Source of the DNA: a virus
Taxonomy: Duplodnaviria; Heunggongvirae; Uroviricota; Caudoviricetes
Strand: one strand, 5' to 3'
DNA: 12,902 nucleotides
IMG/VR virus record: IMGVR_UViG_2541047884_000004
Positions 5,759 through 12,902 of the stretch are shown here, piece after piece. The position numbers and the translations under genes are program-made. The notes under the pieces are model-generated. The model did not search any database, was not told where the DNA came from, and saw only the letters and a list, made by a program, of their open reading frames with translations. Positions within the stretch are counted from its first letter, which is position 1. Each line of letters begins with the position of its first letter.

Positions 5759-6456
5759 ACACTTGCTCCTTTCAGTCCTAACTTAGCTTTAATTTCTGCG
5801 ATCTTCGCCAGCGCCTGAACACGATTTAGAGGTCTGCCGCCCATGACAGGAAGTTGTTTTACTGGTTCAGGTATCGTCTCACCACGGTTAATTCGCGCTG
5901 TCATACAGGTCAGTTCATCGGCAGCCTTGCGTCGTAATTCCGCGTCAGTCAGCGCATTGGCCCGCATGTTCTGGTACAGGTTGGTAACCAGCCAGTAGTG
6001 CGCGTTCGATTTCCACGGATAAGACTCTGCATCCGGATACAGGCCTCGCTTCCGGCAATACTCGTAAACCATATCAACCAGCTCGCTGACGTTTGGCAGT
6101 CCGGCGATAACGGATGCTTCTTCCCGGCACCATGCAACAAACTGCCCGGGTGATGGCAGAAATGGTCGATTCTGCCGACGGGCTACGCGCATTCCTGCGT
6201 TAACCTGTTCCATTGTGGTGATCCCGTTTTCCCGGAAAGCCAGAACCCACTGGCGGCGGATTTCGTTCAGTTCGTTCTGGTCACGGTTAGCCAGACTCGC
6301 CGGGAAAGTTGCCAGTAACTGGCTGAACACACCGTTGATGATCTGCGCTACCTGCTGTACCTGCGGCTTTTCGTCGTACTGTTCCGGCATGTTGTTGGCG
6401 ATCCGACGCATCTGCTCACGGTCAAAATTAACCATCTGTGCGGCGATGTTTTTCAT
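5755..6456 (-). CDS. P: Replication protein P (DnaB helicase loader)
   Basis: 233 aa MKNIAAQMVNFDREQMRRIANNMPEQYDEKPQVQQVAQIINGVFSQLL...; near-identical to lambda P as recalled. ATG 6456 overlaps the O stop. Confidence 0.95.
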   Translation of the reverse strand: MKNIAAQMVNFDREQMRRIANNMPEQYDEKPQVQQVAQIINGVFSQLLATFPASLANRDQNELNEIRRQWVLAFRENGITTMEQVNAGMRVARRQNRPFLPSPGQFVAWCREEASVIAGLPNVSELVDMVYEYCRKRGLYPDAESYPWKSNAHYWLVTNLYQNMRANALTDAELRRKAADELTCMTARINRGETIPEPVKQLPVMGGRPLNRVQALAKIAEIKAKLGLKGASV

Positions 6457-6801
6457 AAATCCACCCCGTAAATCCAGTCAGTGTTTGTCAGGTCGAGTTT
6501 TGGTTTGCAGGCTGTCACACCTGCCTGTTGCTTGTTACGGTTGATTTCGAGCTGGGTCCACTTGTCGCGGAGTTTGGCCGGGCTCAGCACGTTACCGGAC
6601 CAGAAGTTGTCCTGGCATGCCCAGCGGAACAGTACACACATGTCGCGATGGTTACGTCCGTCACGTTCACGCATCAGGCGGATATCGTTAGCCCACCCTG
6701 CAAAATTCGGTTTTCTGGCTGATGGCGCGATGGTCTTCACCATGTCAAACATCCATTCTGCGGCGGTCAGGTCTTCTGCTGTCCCCCACTTGCTGCCGCT
6801 C
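6453..6801 (-). pseudogene. O: Replication initiator O, C-terminal (P-interacting) fragment, separated from its 5' part by an IS insertion
   Basis: In-frame translation from the IS boundary reads SGSKWGTAEDLTAAEWMFDMVKTIAPSARKPNFAGWANDIRLMRERDG...GVDL, matching the lambda O C-terminus. No promoter or start of its own; the upstream boundary is the IS end at 6802. Confidence 0.9.
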
Positions 6802-6855
6802 TGAACCGCCCCGGGAATCCTGGAGACTAAACTTCCTGAGAAAGAGGTAAACAGG

Positions 6856-7182
6856 ATGACTAAAAATACTCGTTTTTCCCCCGAAGTCCGTCAACGGGCA
6901 GTCCGTATGGTTCTGGAAAGTCAGAGCGAATATGACTCACAATGGGCGACAATTTGTTCCATTGCTCCAAAGATTGGCTGTACGCCGGAGACTCTGCGTG
7001 TCTGGGTTCGCCAGCATGAGCGGGATACCGGGGGCGGTGATGGAGGGCTCACCACCGCTGAACGTCAGCGTCTGAAAGAGCTGGAACGTGAAAATCGTGA
7101 ACTGCGCCGCAGTAACGATATCCTTCGCCAGGCTTCCGCTTATTTTGCGAAGGCGGAGTTCGACCGCCTCTGGAAAAAATGA
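6856..7182 (+). CDS. IS3-family transposase OrfA (HTH/leucine-zipper part)
   Basis: 108 aa [55 protein letters not shown]...; ends in an A6 run (7174..7179) where the -1 frame OrfB begins. Confidence 0.9.
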
Positions 7183-8069
7183 TGCCACTGCTGGATAAGC
7201 TGCGTGAGCAGTACGGGGTCGGACCGCTATGCAGCGAACTGCATATTGCCCCGTCAACGTATTACCACTGTCAGCAACAGCGACATCATCCGGATAAACG
7301 CAGTGCCCGTGCGCAGCGCGATGACTGGCTGAAGAAAGAGATACAGCGCGTATACGATGAAAATCACAAGGTATACGGTGTGCGTAAAGTCTGGCGTCAG
7401 TTGTTACGGGAAGGTATCAGAGTGGCCAGATGCACTGTGGCACGTCTCATGGCGGTTATGGGACTTGCCGGTGTTCTCCGGGGTAAAAAGGTCCGTACGA
7501 CCATCAGCCGGAAAGCCGTTGCCGCAGGCGACCGCGTAAACCGTCAGTTCGTGGCAGAACGACCTGACCAGCTGTGGGTGGCTGATTTTACTTACGTCAG
7601 CACATGGCGGGGCTTCGTCTATGTGGCGTTCATCATTGATGTGTTTGCCGGATACATCGTGGGGTGGCGGGTCTCATCGTCCATGGAAACGACATTCGTG
7701 CTGGATGCACTGGAGCAGGCGTTATGGGCCCGTCGACCGTCCGGCACGGTCCATCACAGTGATAAAGGTTCTCAGTATGTATCGCTGGCCTACACACAGC
7801 GGCTTAAGGAAGCCGGATTACTGGCATCAACAGGAAGTACAGGCGACTCGTATGACAACGCGATGGCGGAGAGCATCAATGGTCTTTACAAAGCGGAGGT
7901 AATACACCGTAAGAGCTGGAAAAACCGTGCAGAAGTGGAACTGGCCACACTCACGTGGGTGGACTGGTATAACAATCGACGATTGCTGGAAAGGCTGGGC
8001 CATACTCCTCCGGCAGAAGCAGAAAAAGCTTATTATGCTTCCATCGGAAACGATGATCTGGCAGCCTGA
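7179..8069 (+). CDS. IS3-family transposase OrfB (DDE catalytic domain); OrfAB fusion expected by programmed -1 frameshift
   Basis: 296 aa with an rve-type integrase core (…[31 protein letters not shown]… [11 protein letters not shown] … [17 protein letters not shown]…). Overlaps OrfA in the -1 frame at the A-run. Confidence 0.9.
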
Positions 8070-8111
8070 GTTCACAGATAAAACACTCTCCAGGAAACCC
8101 GGGGCGGTTCA

Positions 8112-8665
8112 CTCTGAATTGCAGCATCCGGTTTCACCACAGAAAGGTCGTTTTCTGGCTGGTCAGAGGATTCGCCAGAATTCTCTGACGAATAATCTTT
8201 TCTTTTTTCTTTTGTAATAGTGTCTTTTGTGTCCCCCTGTTTTGAGGGATAGCAATCCCCCAATTTGAGGGATGTTTTATCCCTCGTTTTAGGGGATTTT
8301 CCCTCGTTTTGAGGGATACACCATTCTGAGATGTTTTTATTTGGTCCAAACATGCCGCCTTGCTGCTTGATAATATTCATTCTGACGAGTTCTAACTTGG
8401 CTTCATTGCACCGTTTGACGGGTAACTTTGTAATCTCGCTAAGTTGAGAATCGGTGATTCTGTCCATTGGTTTATTCCATCCATAGGTTTTACGCAGAAT
8501 GGCAAGCAGCACTTTAAACTGTCGCTTGGTCAGATCTGCGCCTGAATAAGCCTCAAGCAGCATATTTGATAGTCTGGCGTAACCATCATCGAGATCTGCC
8601 ACATTACGCTCCTGTTTGGCAAAGTTACCTCTGCAGAAGTTGAGTATTTTTGCTGTATTTGTCAT
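8112..8665 (-). pseudogene. O: Replication initiator O, N-terminal (ori-binding) fragment, truncated by the IS insertion
   Basis: ATG 8665 with AGGAG RBS; MTNTAKILNFCRGNFAKQERNVADLDDGYARLSNMLLEAYSGADLTKRQFKVLLAILRKTYGWNKPMDRITDSQL... matches lambda O. The reading frame runs into the IS end and stops at 8072 after 15 IS-encoded residues. Confidence 0.9.
8185..8317. repeat. ori-lambda-type replication origin inside O: four iterons plus adjacent AT-rich region
   Basis: Four ~18-19 bp near-palindromic repeats of the TCCCTC-N-GAGGGA type (about 8232..8250, 8255..8273, 8279..8297, 8300..8317), flanked by the AT-rich stretch 8185..8231 (tgacgaataatcttttcttttttcttttgtaatagtg). Confidence 0.75.
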
Positions 8666-8697
8666 AATGACTCCTGTGGATTGATCCAGTAATGACC

Positions 8698-8994
8698 TCA
8701 GAATTCCATCTGGATTTGTTCAGAACGCTCGGTTGCCGCCGGGCGTTTTTTATTGGTGAGTCCATCAAGCGCATACTTAAAAGCCCTGCTAATCGGACTG
8801 ATGTCTGATGCCATTCCGAAAGCACACAAGACCGAAGCAATAAATCTCCAGTCCGTTCTGCTTATCTTCGATTCATGACAGCCAATCATCTTTGCCAGAC
8901 CGCGCTGGGTAATAGCTGACAGATTGATAAGTAAATCTGTTTCTGCGCGATCAACGTCACGCTGTGATAGTTTGCTGTAACTTGTTCTTTCCAT
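8698..8994 (-). CDS. cII: CII-like transcriptional activator
   Basis: 98 aa; C-terminal LTNKKRPAATERSEQIQMEF matches lambda CII as recalled, the N-terminal two thirds are divergent. Position between cro and O. Confidence 0.8.
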   Translation of the reverse strand: MERTSYSKLSQRDVDRAETDLLINLSAITQRGLAKMIGCHESKISRTDWRFIASVLCAFGMASDISPISRAFKYALDGLTNKKRPAATERSEQIQMEF

Positions 8995-9079
8995 TTCTTA
9001 AGATTTCCAATAGTGAATAGTTAGTTGAAAGGTATGCGTGGAAACGCATATGGCCTTAGTTGGTCAGATATCTTGGAAC

Positions 9080-9124
9080 TCGCTTTTCAGCGACGTAGGA
9101 CGAATGTCCGTTGTTACAAAGAGC
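9080..9124 (-). promoter_or_regulatory. nutR-like site: boxA, spacer hairpin, boxB hairpin with GAAA loop
   Basis: Minus-strand reading GCTCTTTGTAACAA (boxA-like, 9124..9111), hairpin GGAC-attc-GTCC (9109..9098), hairpin TCGCT-GAAA-AGCGA (9093..9080). It lies just after the cro stop and has the same architecture as the site upstream of N. Confidence 0.5.
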
Positions 9125-9135
9125 GGATCCGCTTA

Positions 9136-9351
9136 TTAAGCGGCTTTGTGTTCCGGCGGGAACACGTCATCAAGACTGACTTTTGCGCCTAACTTGTTTA
9201 GGCACGCAACAAGAGCACGGCATGTTTTAAGGTCTGGGAAGCGACGACCAGATTCCCAATGTCCGATAGCTCCCTGTGTGCATCCAACTGCCTTAGCAAG
9301 TGTTGTTTGAGAGATATTCAGTGACTCTCGATATTTTCGTAGGTTGCTCAT
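9136..9351 (-). CDS. cro: Cro-like repressor (HTH, XRE family)
   Basis: 71 aa from ATG 9351 (MSNLRKYRESLNISQTTLAKAVGCTQGAIGHWESGRRFPDLKTCRALVACLNKLGAKVSLDDVFPPEHKAA), preceded by GGAGGG; divergent from cI. The longer ORF-track form would overlap the operator region and is rejected. Confidence 0.75.
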   Translation of the reverse strand: MSNLRKYRESLNISQTTLAKAVGCTQGAIGHWESGRRFPDLKTCRALVACLNKLGAKVSLDDVFPPEHKAA

Positions 9352-9462
9352 ATGCCCTCCATAGTAAACACGAATAAAAAAATACAATATGTACTTTGCG
9401 AATACAAGTAAAAATACACATTGTGCATGGATGGTTCCAGTACAGAGCGTAATAATAAGGAC
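9352..9462. promoter_or_regulatory. OR region: divergent pR (for cro) and pRM (for cI) with TACA/TGTA-type operator repeats
   Basis: Candidate pR on the minus strand: TTGTAT (9407..9402), 17-bp spacer, TATTTT (9384..9379). Operator-like near-palindromes include TACAATATGTA (9383..9393) and TACAAGTA (9403..9410). The motif at 9382..9397 is shared with the pL region. Candidate pRM -10 TAATAA (9450..9455) lies 7 bp before the cI ATG. Confidence 0.55.
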
Positions 9463-10122
9463 ATGAAAATGAAATGGTATGAACTGGCTAGATCCAGAAT
9501 GAAAGAGCTCGGCATAACTCAAGAGAAGTTAGCCGAAGAGCTAGGTATGACGCAGGGTGGGATTGGACACTGGTTGCGCGGATCTCGTCATCCATCTCTT
9601 AGTGATATTGGTGTGGTGTTTAAATACCTTGGTATTGATAACATATCATTCAACCACGACGGGACATTTTCACCTGTTGGCGAATACTCATCGGCCCCAG
9701 TTAAAAAACAATATGAGTACCCTGTTTTTTCTCATGTTCAGGCTGGGATGTTCTCTCCAGAACTCAGAACCTTTACCAAAGGCGATGCGGAGAGATTGGT
9801 AAGCACAACCAAAAAAGCCAGTGACTCTGCATTCTGGCTTGAGGTTGAAGGTAACTCAATGACCGCACCAACAGGTTCCAAACCCAGCTTTCCTGACGGG
9901 ATGTTAATTCTGGTTGACCCTGAGCAAGCTGTTGAGCCCGGCGATTTCTGCATAGCCAGACTTGGTGGTGATGAATTTACCTTCAAGAAACTGATCAGGG
10001 ATAGCGGTCAGGTGTTTCTACAGCCACTAAACCCACAATACCCAATGATCCCATGCAATGAGAGTTGTTCCGTTGTGGGGAAAGTTATCGCCAGCCAATG
10101 GCCTGAAGAGACGTTTGGGTGA
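9463..10122 (+). CDS. cI: CI prophage repressor: HTH N-terminal domain plus S24 (LexA-like) autocleavage C-terminal domain
   Basis: C-terminal ~150 aa ([71 protein letters not shown]...[10 protein letters not shown]) match lambda CI as recalled, including the GNSM serine and catalytic Lys regions. N-terminal DNA-binding domain differs from lambda. Start taken at ATG 9463 (ATG 9469 also possible). Confidence 0.9.
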
Positions 10123-10161
10123 TGAAACCACTTTTATCTACAATTTACAGGGCGGTAAACA

Positions 10162-10719
10162 TTGGCAAAAATAGATGATTATCAGCCAAGCCAAGTAGAA
10201 GTTGATAAAGTACTTTATTGTAAAAAAATAGTTAACTTTTCTGGCGTTAAATGGAAACAGAAACCAAGTCGCTCTGATATGTGGCTACAAGCCCATATCA
10301 TCCCCTTGGATGAGGATTGTATACCTATACAAGGGCTAAAGTTTGAACTGAAATGGAAACCAGATCAGGATTCAGAACCTGATGACCCGATTTCTTACCC
10401 TAAAATAAATATTATTGCTTTCTATCATAACAAGAGGGTTTTCGCGGTAGATACCTATCACTTTGACAAACACACGAATAGTTACAAGGTCGATCATCCG
10501 AAGTACCAAGATATCATTTACGGTGCTCACTACCATGTATACTATGAAGAAGCTGGATACTATAGTGATAGAATAGCGTTTCCAATCGAAGATGACATAA
10601 ACCCAGATGGCCTGGTAGGGTATTGGAATTACTTCTGTAAACATCTGAACATAACTTACTCTGGGAGAATACCTTTACCGCTTGAAGATGAGTCGGGGCA
10701 AATGGGGTTTGGAATATGA
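10162..10719 (+). CDS. Hypothetical protein, 185 aa, no recognised family; first gene of a two-gene cassette at the rexAB-equivalent locus
   Basis: Long ORF in AT-rich DNA immediately downstream of cI. First in-frame start is TTG at 10162 (preceded by AGGGCGG); no in-frame ATG until codon 40. Hydrophilic, rich in aromatic and acidic residues, no obvious TM segment. Confidence 0.6.
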   Translation: MAKIDDYQPSQVEVDKVLYCKKIVNFSGVKWKQKPSRSDMWLQAHIIPLDEDCIPIQGLKFELKWKPDQDSEPDDPISYPKINIIAFYHNKRVFAVDTYHFDKHTNSYKVDHPKYQDIIYGAHYHVYYEEAGYYSDRIAFPIEDDINPDGLVGYWNYFCKHLNITYSGRIPLPLEDESGQMGFGI

Positions 10720-11468
10720 TGTGCGCAACAGTGATCTCACAACTAGGTTTCGAATGCCATCCAATAGGCAAGACCTTGAGAATTATCAGTCCATTCACTT
10801 ACTGTGATGATGGAGAGCATGTCGGTGCCTTTATCCGTGAAGTCAATGGTAGGTATTTAGTTAGTGACAGATGCGATGCCTTAATGAATATGGAGGCAAG
10901 AGGGATCTCGCTTACCAAAAAACGACTTGATGAGATACGACAATTACTGCTTAAAGAAGGCGCAGAACTCAATGCTCGAGGAGAAATCATTGCTTGGGCA
11001 ACAGAAAAGGATGTCGGTGCGATTACATCGAACATAATTAGAGCTGGTATACTCGCATCAACTTTGTCGTTAGACTGGTATCAGCCAGTTCAAGCTGAAA
11101 AGTTTGAAAGTATGGTTATTGATTATCTATATCACACAGAGCTTAGAGACGCACTTTCTCTTCGTGAAAACGTATATGGCTTGAGTGGACATCAAATTAC
11201 CGTCCCTGTAACAATAAAAACCGACATACCTAAATACGTTTTTACATCAAGCGTGAAACACGGAGGAAGCTGGAATAGTGCTTACTCATTGCTTGGGAAA
11301 CTAATTGATCTTAAAGCTTCAAGTGAGGAGTATAACAACAGATTTGTTGTTATAGACAGCGAAGCAATTGGTGATCAAATGCAACAACTCTCCTTACTCT
11401 TCCATGAATCAAGCCAAGTTCTACCATTCTCCAAAAGAGAGACTTGGGTTAAGAGACTTGCAGCATAA
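10716..11468 (+). CDS. Hypothetical protein, 250 aa, no recognised family; second gene of the cassette
   Basis: ATG 10716 overlaps the stop of the upstream gene (ATGATG...TGA, typical translational coupling). Same strand as cI, followed within 6 nt by an intrinsic terminator. No TM segments apparent. Confidence 0.65.
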   Translation: MMCATVISQLGFECHPIGKTLRIISPFTYCDDGEHVGAFIREVNGRYLVSDRCDALMNMEARGISLTKKRLDEIRQLLLKEGAELNARGEIIAWATEKDVGAITSNIIRAGILASTLSLDWYQPVQAEKFESMVIDYLYHTELRDALSLRENVYGLSGHQITVPVTIKTDIPKYVFTSSVKHGGSWNSAYSLLGKLIDLKASSEEYNNRFVVIDSEAIGDQMQQLSLLFHESSQVLPFSKRETWVKRLAA

Positions 11469-11473
11469 TACAA

Positions 11474-11499
11474 CCCGGCCTCAGCGCCGGGTTTTCTTT
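11474..11499 (+). terminator. Intrinsic terminator ending the cI-cassette transcript (tIMM-equivalent)
   Basis: cccggc / ctcag / gccggg stem-loop followed by GTTTTCTTTG. Confidence 0.6.
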
Positions 11500-11682
11500 G
11501 CCTCACGTTCGCCCACCTAAAAACACATAACCAATTATATTTATTGAAAAATAAATAGATGCAACCCACTAAACCACGCAATTCTGATCTCTCCTTACAT
11601 CGCCGAGGCAATACATCCACGCTAAAAAACAACACTATTAAATACAAAGCGTTATAAAAAACCACGCCAACTTACAACAAAT

Positions 11683-11725
11683 TGTATTGATCTTGTAAAG
11701 TACATATCGTACTATTTAACCGTCA
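11683..11725 (+). promoter_or_regulatory. pL promoter with overlapping OL operator repeats
   Basis: TTGATC (11697..11702), 17-bp spacer, TACTAT (11720..11725). Operator-like inverted repeats TACAACAAATTGTA (11683..11696), TGTAAAGTACA (11704..11714) and AGTACATATCGTACT (11709..11723). The 16-mer AAAGTACATATCGTAC (11707..11722) recurs at OR with two mismatches. Confidence 0.5.
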
Positions 11726-11761
11726 GCAGGACGCTGGAAGCCAAATGGAACAGACTGGCAG

Positions 11762-11806
11762 GCTCTTTAAACAACGTCGACTCTCGACTACGTGGCTGAA
11801 AAGCCA
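11762..11806 (+). promoter_or_regulatory. nutL-like site: boxA, spacer hairpin, boxB hairpin with GAAA loop
   Basis: GCTCTTTAAACAA (11762..11774), hairpin GTCGA-ctc-TCGAC (11776..11788), hairpin TGGCT-GAAA-AGCCA (11793..11806), about 100 nt upstream of N. Confidence 0.5.
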
Positions 11807-11904
11807 GATCACCCAACCACATAAGCTGTGGGATGCAATGCCGAAGCAACCGTCTCAGGAGGAGCTTCGAGATTGCATCGCCAAAGTTTATTCGGGAGGA
11901 ATCC

Positions 11905-12177
11905 ATGTCCAGAAAAACAGAATTTAAAGGCACCGCAGCTTCTCGCCGTAGAGCTCGTCGCGCAAATCTGCAAAGTCAGGAGGCGATCAGCTCCGACAAG
12001 CTACACAGGCCAACCCCTTCACGAGTGGTCTTGCAATGCAAGCTCAAACCAGCAATGAGAGCAGAAGTGATAACTCTGACAACGTTGACCAGAAAATATG
12101 AAGGTTCAACTTGTCTTCCGAACGTAGCTCTTTACGCGGCAGGCTACCGGAAATCAAAACAACTGACGGCGAGATGA
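11905..12177 (+). CDS. N: N-family transcription antiterminator (P22 gp24-like)
   Basis: 90 aa from ATG 11905 with GGGAGGA RBS. N-terminal arginine-rich motif (GTAASRRRARRANLQ); C-terminal LPNVALYAAGYRKSKQLTAR closely resembles the P22 gene 24 protein C-terminus as recalled. First gene after pL/nutL. Confidence 0.75.
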   Translation: MSRKTEFKGTAASRRRARRANLQSQEAISSDKLHRPTPSRVVLQCKLKPAMRAEVITLTTLTRKYEGSTCLPNVALYAAGYRKSKQLTAR

Positions 12178-12193
12178 TAAATTCATTTGCTAA

Positions 12194-12775
12194 TTACTTG
12201 TTTTTGCCATGCTTATCCTGAGCGATAAGTTCATCCATAAGGCTGTCTGCCTTCCCGGCAAACCTAATGTAGCACTCATGTCTATAGCTTTCAGGGATAA
12301 CGAAACGGTCGGTATCAGGATATCCAACAGCAGGAGGCCTTCGAACGAGGAGTCCTTTTTTGAGCAATGAAATTGATTCATGAGCGCCCTTTTCCGTTTG
12401 TAGCTGGTTATTAGCGGCTACAGCGAATGCCAAATACGCTCTTTCTCCAAGAGTTAACGAATCAAACAAATCTTGCACATATTTTTCTTCTTTAGATTTG
12501 CGCTTCTGAGCAGCGAATACCTCAATTCTTTCAGTCACAGCGTGATAAGCGGAATTAACAACGCCGTTAAGCACATAGCTAACGCAAAACAACAGGATGT
12601 AATACATCCAGTAATGAGGAAGGATTTCTGGATTATGCAGGTTTATCCATTCTTTTACGCTTACCGGCATAACAATAATCAATATGATCAGGATGATTAG
12701 CATATGAATCAACTGTTTAAGTGTCATTCCTTGCAGGAAAAAATGCATTAGTTCCTGCCACCATGAGTTGTTCAT
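12194..12775 (-). CDS. sieB: Superinfection exclusion protein B
   Basis: 193 aa from ATG 12775 (MNNSWWQELMHFFLQGMTLKQLIHMLIILIILIIVMPVSVKEW...), hydrophobic N-terminal TM region; near-identical to lambda SieB as recalled. Convergent with N. Confidence 0.85.
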   Translation of the reverse strand: MNNSWWQELMHFFLQGMTLKQLIHMLIILIILIIVMPVSVKEWINLHNPEILPHYWMYYILLFCVSYVLNGVVNSAYHAVTERIEVFAAQKRKSKEEKYVQDLFDSLTLGERAYLAFAVAANNQLQTEKGAHESISLLKKGLLVRRPPAVGYPDTDRFVIPESYRHECYIRFAGKADSLMDELIAQDKHGKNK

Positions 12776-12809
12776 CGGCGTTTCTCTTTTGCTCTCTGTA
12801 GGGGTGAAT

Positions 12810-12902
12810 TGAACCGCCCCGGGTTTCCTGGAGAGTGTTTTATCTGTGAACTCAGGCTGCCAGATCATCGTTTCCGATGGAAGCATAATAAGCTTTTTCT
12901 GC
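12810..12902 (-). mobile_element. End of a second IS3-family (IS629/IS1203-like) copy, inverted relative to the first; continues beyond the window
   Basis: 12810..12902 is the reverse complement of 8019..8111, the right end of the complete copy including its terminal inverted repeat and the 3' end of OrfB. Confidence 0.88.

Follow-up and report, generated by a model that had tools for sequence, protein, structure and literature searches.

A two-gene cassette in place of rexA-rexB in an Escherichia coli lambdoid prophage, a candidate lysogen-expressed defence module

Introduction

What does a lambdoid prophage carry where lambda carries rexA-rexB, and does this cargo protect the lysogen from other phages? 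The question is raised by a 12,902-nucleotide stretch of viral DNA (Caudoviricetes; IMG/VR record IMGVR_UViG_2541047884_000004), hereafter called the window, which represents the early-to-late part of an Escherichia coli lambda-like prophage. Downstream of its cI repressor gene lie two genes, here called gene A and gene B, which an earlier note, made from the sequence alone, had described as an unrecognised cassette in the rexAB position and a candidate exclusion or anti-phage system. The analysis reported here compared this cassette with lambda and with related loci, searched both proteins against domain, phage-protein and defence-system databases, and modelled their structures. The reading that emerges as favoured, with a confidence slightly above even, is that of a lysogen-expressed two-protein defence or abortive-infection module, most likely protecting the lysogen from other phages.

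The cassette replaces rexA-rexB exactly

In blastn comparisons with lambda, the flank on the cI side (9712-10123), spanning the C-terminal half of cI to one base beyond its stop codon, is 93% identical to lambda 37637-37226, and the flank on the terminator side (11472-11593) is 90% identical to lambda 35826-35708, which in lambda begins at the rexB stop and spans the terminator region. Between these lambda-like flanks, the cassette is an exact replacement of rexA-rexB, and its placing in the rexAB position by the earlier note is literally correct. The two genes, of 185 and 250 codons and on the same strand as cI, are present as described there (Table 1), and the TGA stop codon of gene A (10717-10719) overlaps the ATG of gene B (10716-10718) by 4 nucleotides, as ATGA. 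Both show purifying selection against six to eight orthologues, with a ratio of nonsynonymous to synonymous substitution rates (dN/dS) of 0.05-0.2 and saturated dS, and are therefore real, selected genes.

The strong terminator that had been noticed just before pL/OL consists of an 8-bp stem with six G-C pairs followed by a T-run (-17 kcal/mol; z = -4.3 against shuffled sequences). It is homologous to the lambda terminator region after rexB, and pL/OL, located from operator-like inverted repeats, follows about 200 nucleotides further on. The terminator scan predicted no terminator between cI and gene A, and cI is presumed to be the first gene of the pRM operon. Promoter-like sites in the region were no commoner than in shuffled sequences (6 found, 7.8 expected), and no internal promoter is claimed.

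The GC content of the cassette (genes A and B) is 39.8%, compared with 46.3% for cI, 49.9% for N and 46.0% for the window, and the GC content at third codon positions is 0.34-0.36 in genes A and B, compared with 0.45-0.48. The greater AT-richness reported for the cassette relative to cI and N is real, but the difference is moderate; together with a patchy distribution, it is consistent with mobile accessory cargo.

Gene B belongs to a phage defence candidate family

BLASTP detected no similarity of either protein to RexA or RexB (E at least 0.34 in the RexB comparison), in agreement with the earlier note. By contrast, the claim that they resemble no family did not hold, as gene A belongs to PHROG 2017 and gene B to PHROG 1960 and to the Pfam family DUF1828. 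The DUF1828 match covers residues 26-110 of gene B (33.5 bits, gathering cut-off 22) and recurs in 33 of 38 diverse members of its wider family, one member of which weakly matches DUF1829. A PADLOC search, suggested in the note as a check, returned a full-length match of gene B to PDC-M24B (E 5.2e-10, residues 2-249 on profile positions 4-254 of 256), a profile also matched by 31 of the 38 family members (best 8.8e-55). These profile matches place gene B in the PDC-M24B family as a divergent member, and the words ‘unrecognised’ and ‘novel’ were overstated.

PDC-M24 is one of 145 PADLOC ‘phage defence candidates’, picked for copies embedded inside known defence systems (‘guilt-by-embedding’; Payne et al. 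2024 preprint). It corresponds to cassette CAS_00098 (FAM_00129>>FAM_00065, 153 occurrences), and the table of the same preprint also contains FAM_01408>>FAM_00065. Members of the gene B family also sit inside loci of the restriction-modification, BREX or DISARM type that are not part of prophages (Payne et al. 2024 preprint).

In the structure model, the N-domain of gene B resembles type III secretion system chaperones, YbjN and DUF2170. The C-domain is predicted to have the restriction-endonuclease-like alpha-beta-beta-beta-alpha-beta topology that forms the PD-(D/E)xK core fold, shared with Can2, NgoMIV, BstEII, PspGI and NucC-type nucleases. Residues conserved in the family include D32 and D51 in the N-domain, and a GxS157GH motif (S157), D198 and an acidic residue at 213/214 in the C-domain. 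The canonical PD-(D/E)xK triad is not evident in the family: beta2 does not begin with a conserved acidic residue, and beta3 lacks a (D/E)xK motif. Single-sequence and profile searches against solved structures returned nothing meaningful. As the earlier note had stated, no transmembrane segment is apparent in either protein (maximum Kyte-Doolittle 19-residue means of 0.45 for gene A and 1.19 for gene B), and both are predicted to be cytoplasmic, with no signal peptide seen.

Genes A and B are an obligate pair linked to prophage repressors

The complete cassette (at least 99% identity) is present in 239 of 5426 complete E. coli genomes, about 4%, including Nissle 1917, the type strain ATCC 11775, NU14, and several avian pathogenic E. 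coli (APEC) and human extraintestinal pathogenic E. coli (ExPEC) strains. It is also present in seven phage records, among them ev017, ev207, PhiR57_1, PhiR63_2 and a Shiga toxin (Stx) 1a phage. Orthologues of gene B with 47-84% identity occur in Salmonella (more than 500 collection blocks), Klebsiella, Yersinia, Providencia, Xenorhabdus, Photorhabdus, Pectobacterium, Serratia, Erwinia, Edwardsiella, Thorsellia and Aeromonas. When 1.84 billion representative proteins were searched exhaustively with a profile, only 229 relatives of gene B emerged, nearly all of about 250 residues and matched over their full length; this small, compact family has a fixed two-domain architecture. A locus search over species-representative genomes, using narrow search patterns, gave 6 loci only.

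Gene A lies directly 5' of gene B, with the same 4-nucleotide overlap, in 17 of 17 related loci, and the two form an obligate pair. All enterobacterial and Aeromonas contexts examined have the pair just 3' of a prophage repressor gene and on the same strand, as found in E. coli, Salmonella, Klebsiella, Yersinia, Providencia (with two different repressors), Xenorhabdus, Izhakiella, Pantoea, Thorsellia and Aeromonas. The linked repressors are diverse: some are S24 plus helix-turn-helix (HTH) proteins with a mutual identity of only 19-28%, Aeromonas has two different repressor/cro pairs beside genes A and B, and Rac- or Gifsy-like prophages of Klebsiella and Salmonella have short repressors with an HTH domain only.

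A more distant set comprised 49 viral contigs from high-GC hosts encoding PDC-M24B-like relatives of gene B, 48 of which were used for counts. In 46 of the 48, an A-like gene of about 170 codons precedes gene B with a 4-nucleotide overlap, and profile searches identified these A-like genes as homologous to gene A of the window. An S24 repressor gene lies at most 2.5 kb upstream on the same strand in 41 of the 48 (median distance 317 bp, often less than 100 bp), although many of these contigs are near-duplicates and the figure is not a count of independent events.

Because the mobile pair is always found behind whichever repressor its prophage has, use of the lysogeny promoter is the simplest explanation, and this genomic context is the strongest line of evidence. 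Published work describes the same synteny downstream of the repressor for two defence systems, RexAB and BstA, and recognises the region between cI and N as a hotspot of mosaicism (PMC8585504). In prophages of Izhakiella and Providencia, a DUF3024 gene of 113 codons, absent from the window, sits between cI and gene A and could be a further moron or a third component; a 114-codon open reading frame (ORF) was noted alongside these genes in locus L007 (Table 1).

Gene A has a weak start and a putative active site

The earlier note had remarked that gene A has no in-frame ATG near its 5' end and that TTG is its first start codon, which is indeed the case. A TAA stop in the gene A frame (10156-10158) two codons 5' of the TTG, the invariant residues that a start at the first in-frame ATG (codon 40) would drop, and the same aligned ‘MAK’ start position in homologues from eleven other genera make the TTG at 10162 a well supported start, identical to that annotated by RefSeq. 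The homologues use GTG in Salmonella, Klebsiella, Yersinia, Providencia, Xenorhabdus, Izhakiella and Pantoea, TTG in Aeromonas, and ATG in Thorsellia only; TTG or GTG starts gene A in 12 of 13 enterobacterial and Aeromonas loci. The A-like genes of the distant high-GC relatives often start with ATG, and the weak start is thus a trait of the branch to which the window belongs and not of the entire family. A short upstream ORF, whose ATG overlaps the cI stop codon, ends 14 nucleotides beyond the TTG. Short upstream ORFs ending at or within a few bases of the gene A start occur in 10 of the 13 loci (besides the window, L008, L013-L017, L006, L068 and L069), compared with 16% of random positions, and may couple translation of gene A to upstream translation through termination-reinitiation control.

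Gene A is predicted to be mostly beta, with no fold match in the structure model. The residues D97, H104, N106, G121, H123, H125, Y127 and E129 are invariant in its close relatives, and the conserved Asp/His/Asn cluster among them (D97, H104, N106, H123, H125) suggests a metal-dependent active site. Its match to PDC-M24A, the PADLOC profile for the partner of PDC-M24B, is partial and marginal (E 1.2e-3, residues 104-154 only); weak PDC-M24A matches were found in 2 of 9 gene A relatives, and in none of 18 diverse gene A proteins at E <= 1e-3, while DUF6978 gave weak, sub-cut-off matches in 15 of 18 close relatives. The gene A partner family may instead be FAM_01408, the second partner of FAM_00065 in the table of Payne et al. 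Gene A diverges faster than gene B in the same loci, the identities to the window being 36% for A and 54% for B in Aeromonas, and 44% and 64% in Klebsiella. Within gene A, a 26-nucleotide direct repeat (10570-10595 and 10666-10691, 77% identical) encodes in both copies a similar ‘R-I-x-F/L-P-(I/L)-E-D-(D/E)’ peptide, which may reflect chance or a small internal duplication.

Proposed function and mechanism

The proposal of the earlier note that the cassette serves in defence is partly supported, by the slot, by the lack of a predicted terminator between cI and the cassette, and by a repressor linkage like that of RexAB and BstA; the part that is weakened is its novelty, the gene B family being a PADLOC candidate already. 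In the favoured reading, genes A and B would be transcribed together with cI from pRM and pRE up to the lambda-type terminator. Output of gene A would be kept low by its weak TTG/GTG start, a poor Shine-Dalgarno sequence and the short upstream ORF ending at its start, while gene B would be translated by coupling via the ATGA overlap. It is probable that the two proteins work together in a complex, in which gene B, with a peptide-binding chaperone-like N-domain and a restriction-endonuclease-fold C-domain, would be the conserved core and likely a sensor-effector or regulator, and gene A the faster-evolving partner with a putative metal-dependent active site. During infection, a phage product would trigger one of the proteins, whose attack on nucleic acid or a different essential target would block phage growth. 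As candidates for the effector, the nuclease fold of gene B and the His cluster of gene A both qualify, and as candidates for the sensor, so do the faster evolution of gene A and the chaperone-like domain of gene B.

Several points weigh against a role in defence. Gene B may not be an active nuclease, since the canonical PD-(D/E)xK triad is not evident; the tie of gene A to PDC-M24A and DUF6978 is marginal (partial matches, E 1e-3 to 1e-4); and neither protein matches any PADLOC validated defence family or any NCBIfam model. In the literature, no experimental or functional study was found of the cassette, DUF1828, DUF6978, PDC-M24 or the two RefSeq accessions. In addition, cargo in the rexAB slot can do other jobs, as RexA and RexB assist the lysogeny-to-lytic switch (Thomason et al. 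2021, as cited in PMC12315714).

A broader version of the proposal is offered tentatively and is considerably less probable than the reading above. Here, genes A and B would represent a widespread, newly defined family of repressor-linked two-component abortive-infection systems, unrelated mechanistically to RexAB, BstA or any validated system. Gene A would be an enzyme of a fold unseen in solved structures, with a D/H/N/H/H active site, kept scarce by its weak start and by coupling to the upstream ORF, and gene B would join a chaperone-like sensor to a degenerate nuclease fold and restrain gene A until a phage protein binds.

Comparison with known systems

RexA is a cytoplasmic DNA-binding sensor, and RexB an integral, polytopic membrane protein. 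The cassette shares with them the slot and operon logic (cI, two genes, terminator, OL/pL), the strand of cI, the two-gene format, and flanks 90-93% identical to those in lambda. Because genes A and B lack sequence similarity to RexA and RexB and neither encodes a membrane protein, their mechanism must differ from that of RexAB. With PDC-M24, the cassette shares the PDC-M24B family of gene B and the gene order, in which a small A gene precedes a B gene of about 250 codons. The differences are that gene A only marginally matches PDC-M24A/DUF6978 and may belong to a different partner family, and that the branch in the window is prophage-borne and repressor-linked, in contrast to the copies inside other defence systems from which PDC-M24 was defined.

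BstA, the abortive-infection protein of the Salmonella prophage BTP1, resembles the cassette in its synteny downstream of the repressor (PMC8585504), but it consists of one protein, is accompanied by a DNA-based self-immunity element (aba) and has no homology to gene A or gene B, whose PADLOC matches are limited to PDC-M24. Effectors that join a sensor to a PD-(D/E)xK nuclease, of the Can2/Card1, NucC and Cap4 types, differ in that the N-domain of gene B is chaperone- or YbjN-like and not CARF or SAVED, that the cassette in the window has no cyclic-nucleotide synthase nearby, and that gene B does not conserve the canonical catalytic triad.

For E. coli Nissle 1917, Bury et al. 2018 reported that a ‘phage repressor (pr)’ gene, EcN_1294, protects K-12 from lambda and Stx phages; they cloned ‘pr’ and left the other genes of the Nissle 1917 prophage outside their tests. 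The published ‘pr’ primers map to the cII-like gene (8698-8994, minus strand; primers within 8670-9040) and not to cI, the quantitative PCR primers and one cloning primer matching the window exactly and the other cloning primer with 2 mismatches.

Alternative explanations

Of the explanations that do without a primary anti-phage role, the one that survives best, though it is unlikely, is a toxin-antitoxin-like addiction module stabilising the prophage or its immunity region, with gene A as a low-expressed toxin and gene B as the neutralising partner. Two small overlapping genes with coupled translation, a first gene with a weak start (TTG/GTG in 12 of 13 loci) as in toxin-first operons, a chaperone-like peptide-binding N-domain in gene B and an enzyme-like conserved His/Asp/Asn cluster in gene A are all consistent with such a module. 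However, Pfam, NCBIfam and PADLOC searches returned no known toxin or antitoxin family for either protein, and the strict post-repressor position fits lysogen-specific expression better than addiction. The explanation also overlaps with a defence function, as many toxin-antitoxin modules act in defence anyway.

Slightly less probable again is an accessory of the lysis-lysogeny switch, which would modulate repressor stability, RecA-dependent induction or the lytic transition in the manner reported for RexA/RexB and for Hex of phage 434. The family-wide physical linkage to repressor genes could be read in this way, but the cassette follows unrelated repressor types, including S24 cI proteins with only 19-28% identity and HTH-only types, which argues for shared promoter use rather than a specific protein-protein partnership. 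Cargo of the rexAB slot does have documented switch roles (Thomason et al. 2021, as cited in PMC12315714); on the other side, the gene B family is also found in restriction-modification, BREX or DISARM-type loci outside prophages. Least probable is a phage-unrelated host-fitness or virulence moron (a stress or colonisation factor) exploiting the highly expressed repressor transcript. Lambdoid prophages do carry such morons, as the porin gene in the window illustrates, and ExPEC, APEC and probiotic strains commonly have the cassette, but both proteins are predicted to be cytoplasmic with no signal peptide or transmembrane segment seen, gene B has a predicted nuclease-like fold and a family tied to defence loci, and the hosts span Enterobacterales, Aeromonas and high-GC bacteria of very different lifestyles.

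Genomic setting

In the window, the rightward genes are drawn on the minus strand, and the gene order is lysozyme, holin, ompC/nmpC-like porin, Q, rusA, ninB, ren and P, followed by O (interrupted by an IS3-family insertion sequence element), cII and cro, and finally cI, gene A, gene B and N on the plus strand, with sieB back on the minus strand. In E. coli Nissle 1917, a region with 99.9% identity to this one lies in the prophage adjoining icd. The OR-side operator-like sequence is a 21-nucleotide inverted repeat pairing with 11697-11717 (86% complementary), and a second inverted-repeat pair links 9381-9392 on the OR side with 11677-11688 on the OL side.

Table 1. Features of the immunity region and related loci. 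Positions are those of the window unless a locus is named.
Feature	Position	Strand	Remarks
OR-side operator-like sequence	9377-9397	.	Between cro and cI, pRM/pR region
cI repressor gene	9421-10122	+	Pfam HTH_3 and Peptidase_S24; RefSeq start 9427 (identical Nissle 1917 locus)
Upstream ORF, 18 codons	10122-10178	+	ATG overlaps cI stop as TGATG
Cassette proper, 1348 bp	10124-11471	+	No lambda homology; in place of lambda 35827-37225 (rexA-rexB)
Gene A, 185 aa, TTG start	10162-10719	+	WP_001062368 ‘hypothetical protein’; PHROG 2017
Gene B, 250 aa, ATG start	10716-11468	+	WP_000968518 ‘DUF1828 domain-containing protein’; PHROG 1960; PDC-M24B-like
Intrinsic terminator after gene B	11472-11493	+	Terminator scan and RNA fold
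OL-side operator-like sequences	11677-11717	.	pL region upstream of N; inverted repeats with OR region
N gene	11833-12177	+	Pfam N_peptide, E 1e-32
DUF3024 gene	L012:5044-5385		Between cI and gene A
DUF3024 gene	L014:5053-5394		Between cI and gene A
DUF3024 gene	L015:5052-5393		Between cI and gene A
ORF, 114 aa	L007:5010-5354		Noted alongside the DUF3024 genes

The ompC/nmpC-like porin gene (1407-2549) separates Q from the lysis genes and is a classic moron of the late region, and the DNA before it (1051-1500 region) has the lowest GC content of the window, 26-29%. The IS3-family element (about 6800-8111; orfA 6856-7182, orfB 7179-8069) splits the replication gene O into a C-terminal part (6453-6752) and an N-terminal part (8072-8665). 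A second IS3-family copy, inverted, begins at 12810, where 93 nucleotides are 100% complementary to 8019-8111, and continues past the window end (12902), so that two copies flank the entire immunity region (8112-12809). Nissle 1917 has an intact O, and its sole copy of the element is the one adjoining sieB. The sieB ORF as listed (230 aa, 12194-12886, minus strand) is N-terminally extended into the end of this element, while the RefSeq SieB of Nissle 1917 corresponds to 12194-12775 (193 aa).

Significance

Defence cargo in the cI-N slot is already known as a kind, and the gene B family is already in PADLOC as a candidate. Within the searchable literature, the exact replacement of rexAB, the family-wide repressor linkage, a divergent gene A with no known fold and the conserved translational arrangement appear to be new. 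The cassette is a strong, cheap experimental lead rather than a surprise. The rexAB slot is the textbook site of prophage-encoded exclusion, and here nature has swapped in a different cargo, small enough for cloning on 1.4 kb. The cassette is also common in important strains, including the probiotic Nissle 1917, ATCC 11775, ExPEC, APEC and Stx-converting phages. If the defence reading is false, the cassette would be a caution against inferring function from position in the rexAB slot alone. If it is true, the cassette would provide a validated family of two proteins without a solved structure and the first experimental backing for PDC-M24, and if the broader, more doubtful version is true, it could explain some of the lambdoid-phage resistance of Nissle 1917 left unexplained by Bury et al. 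A defence function would further support ‘gene(s) after prophage repressor’ as a general rule for finding defence systems.

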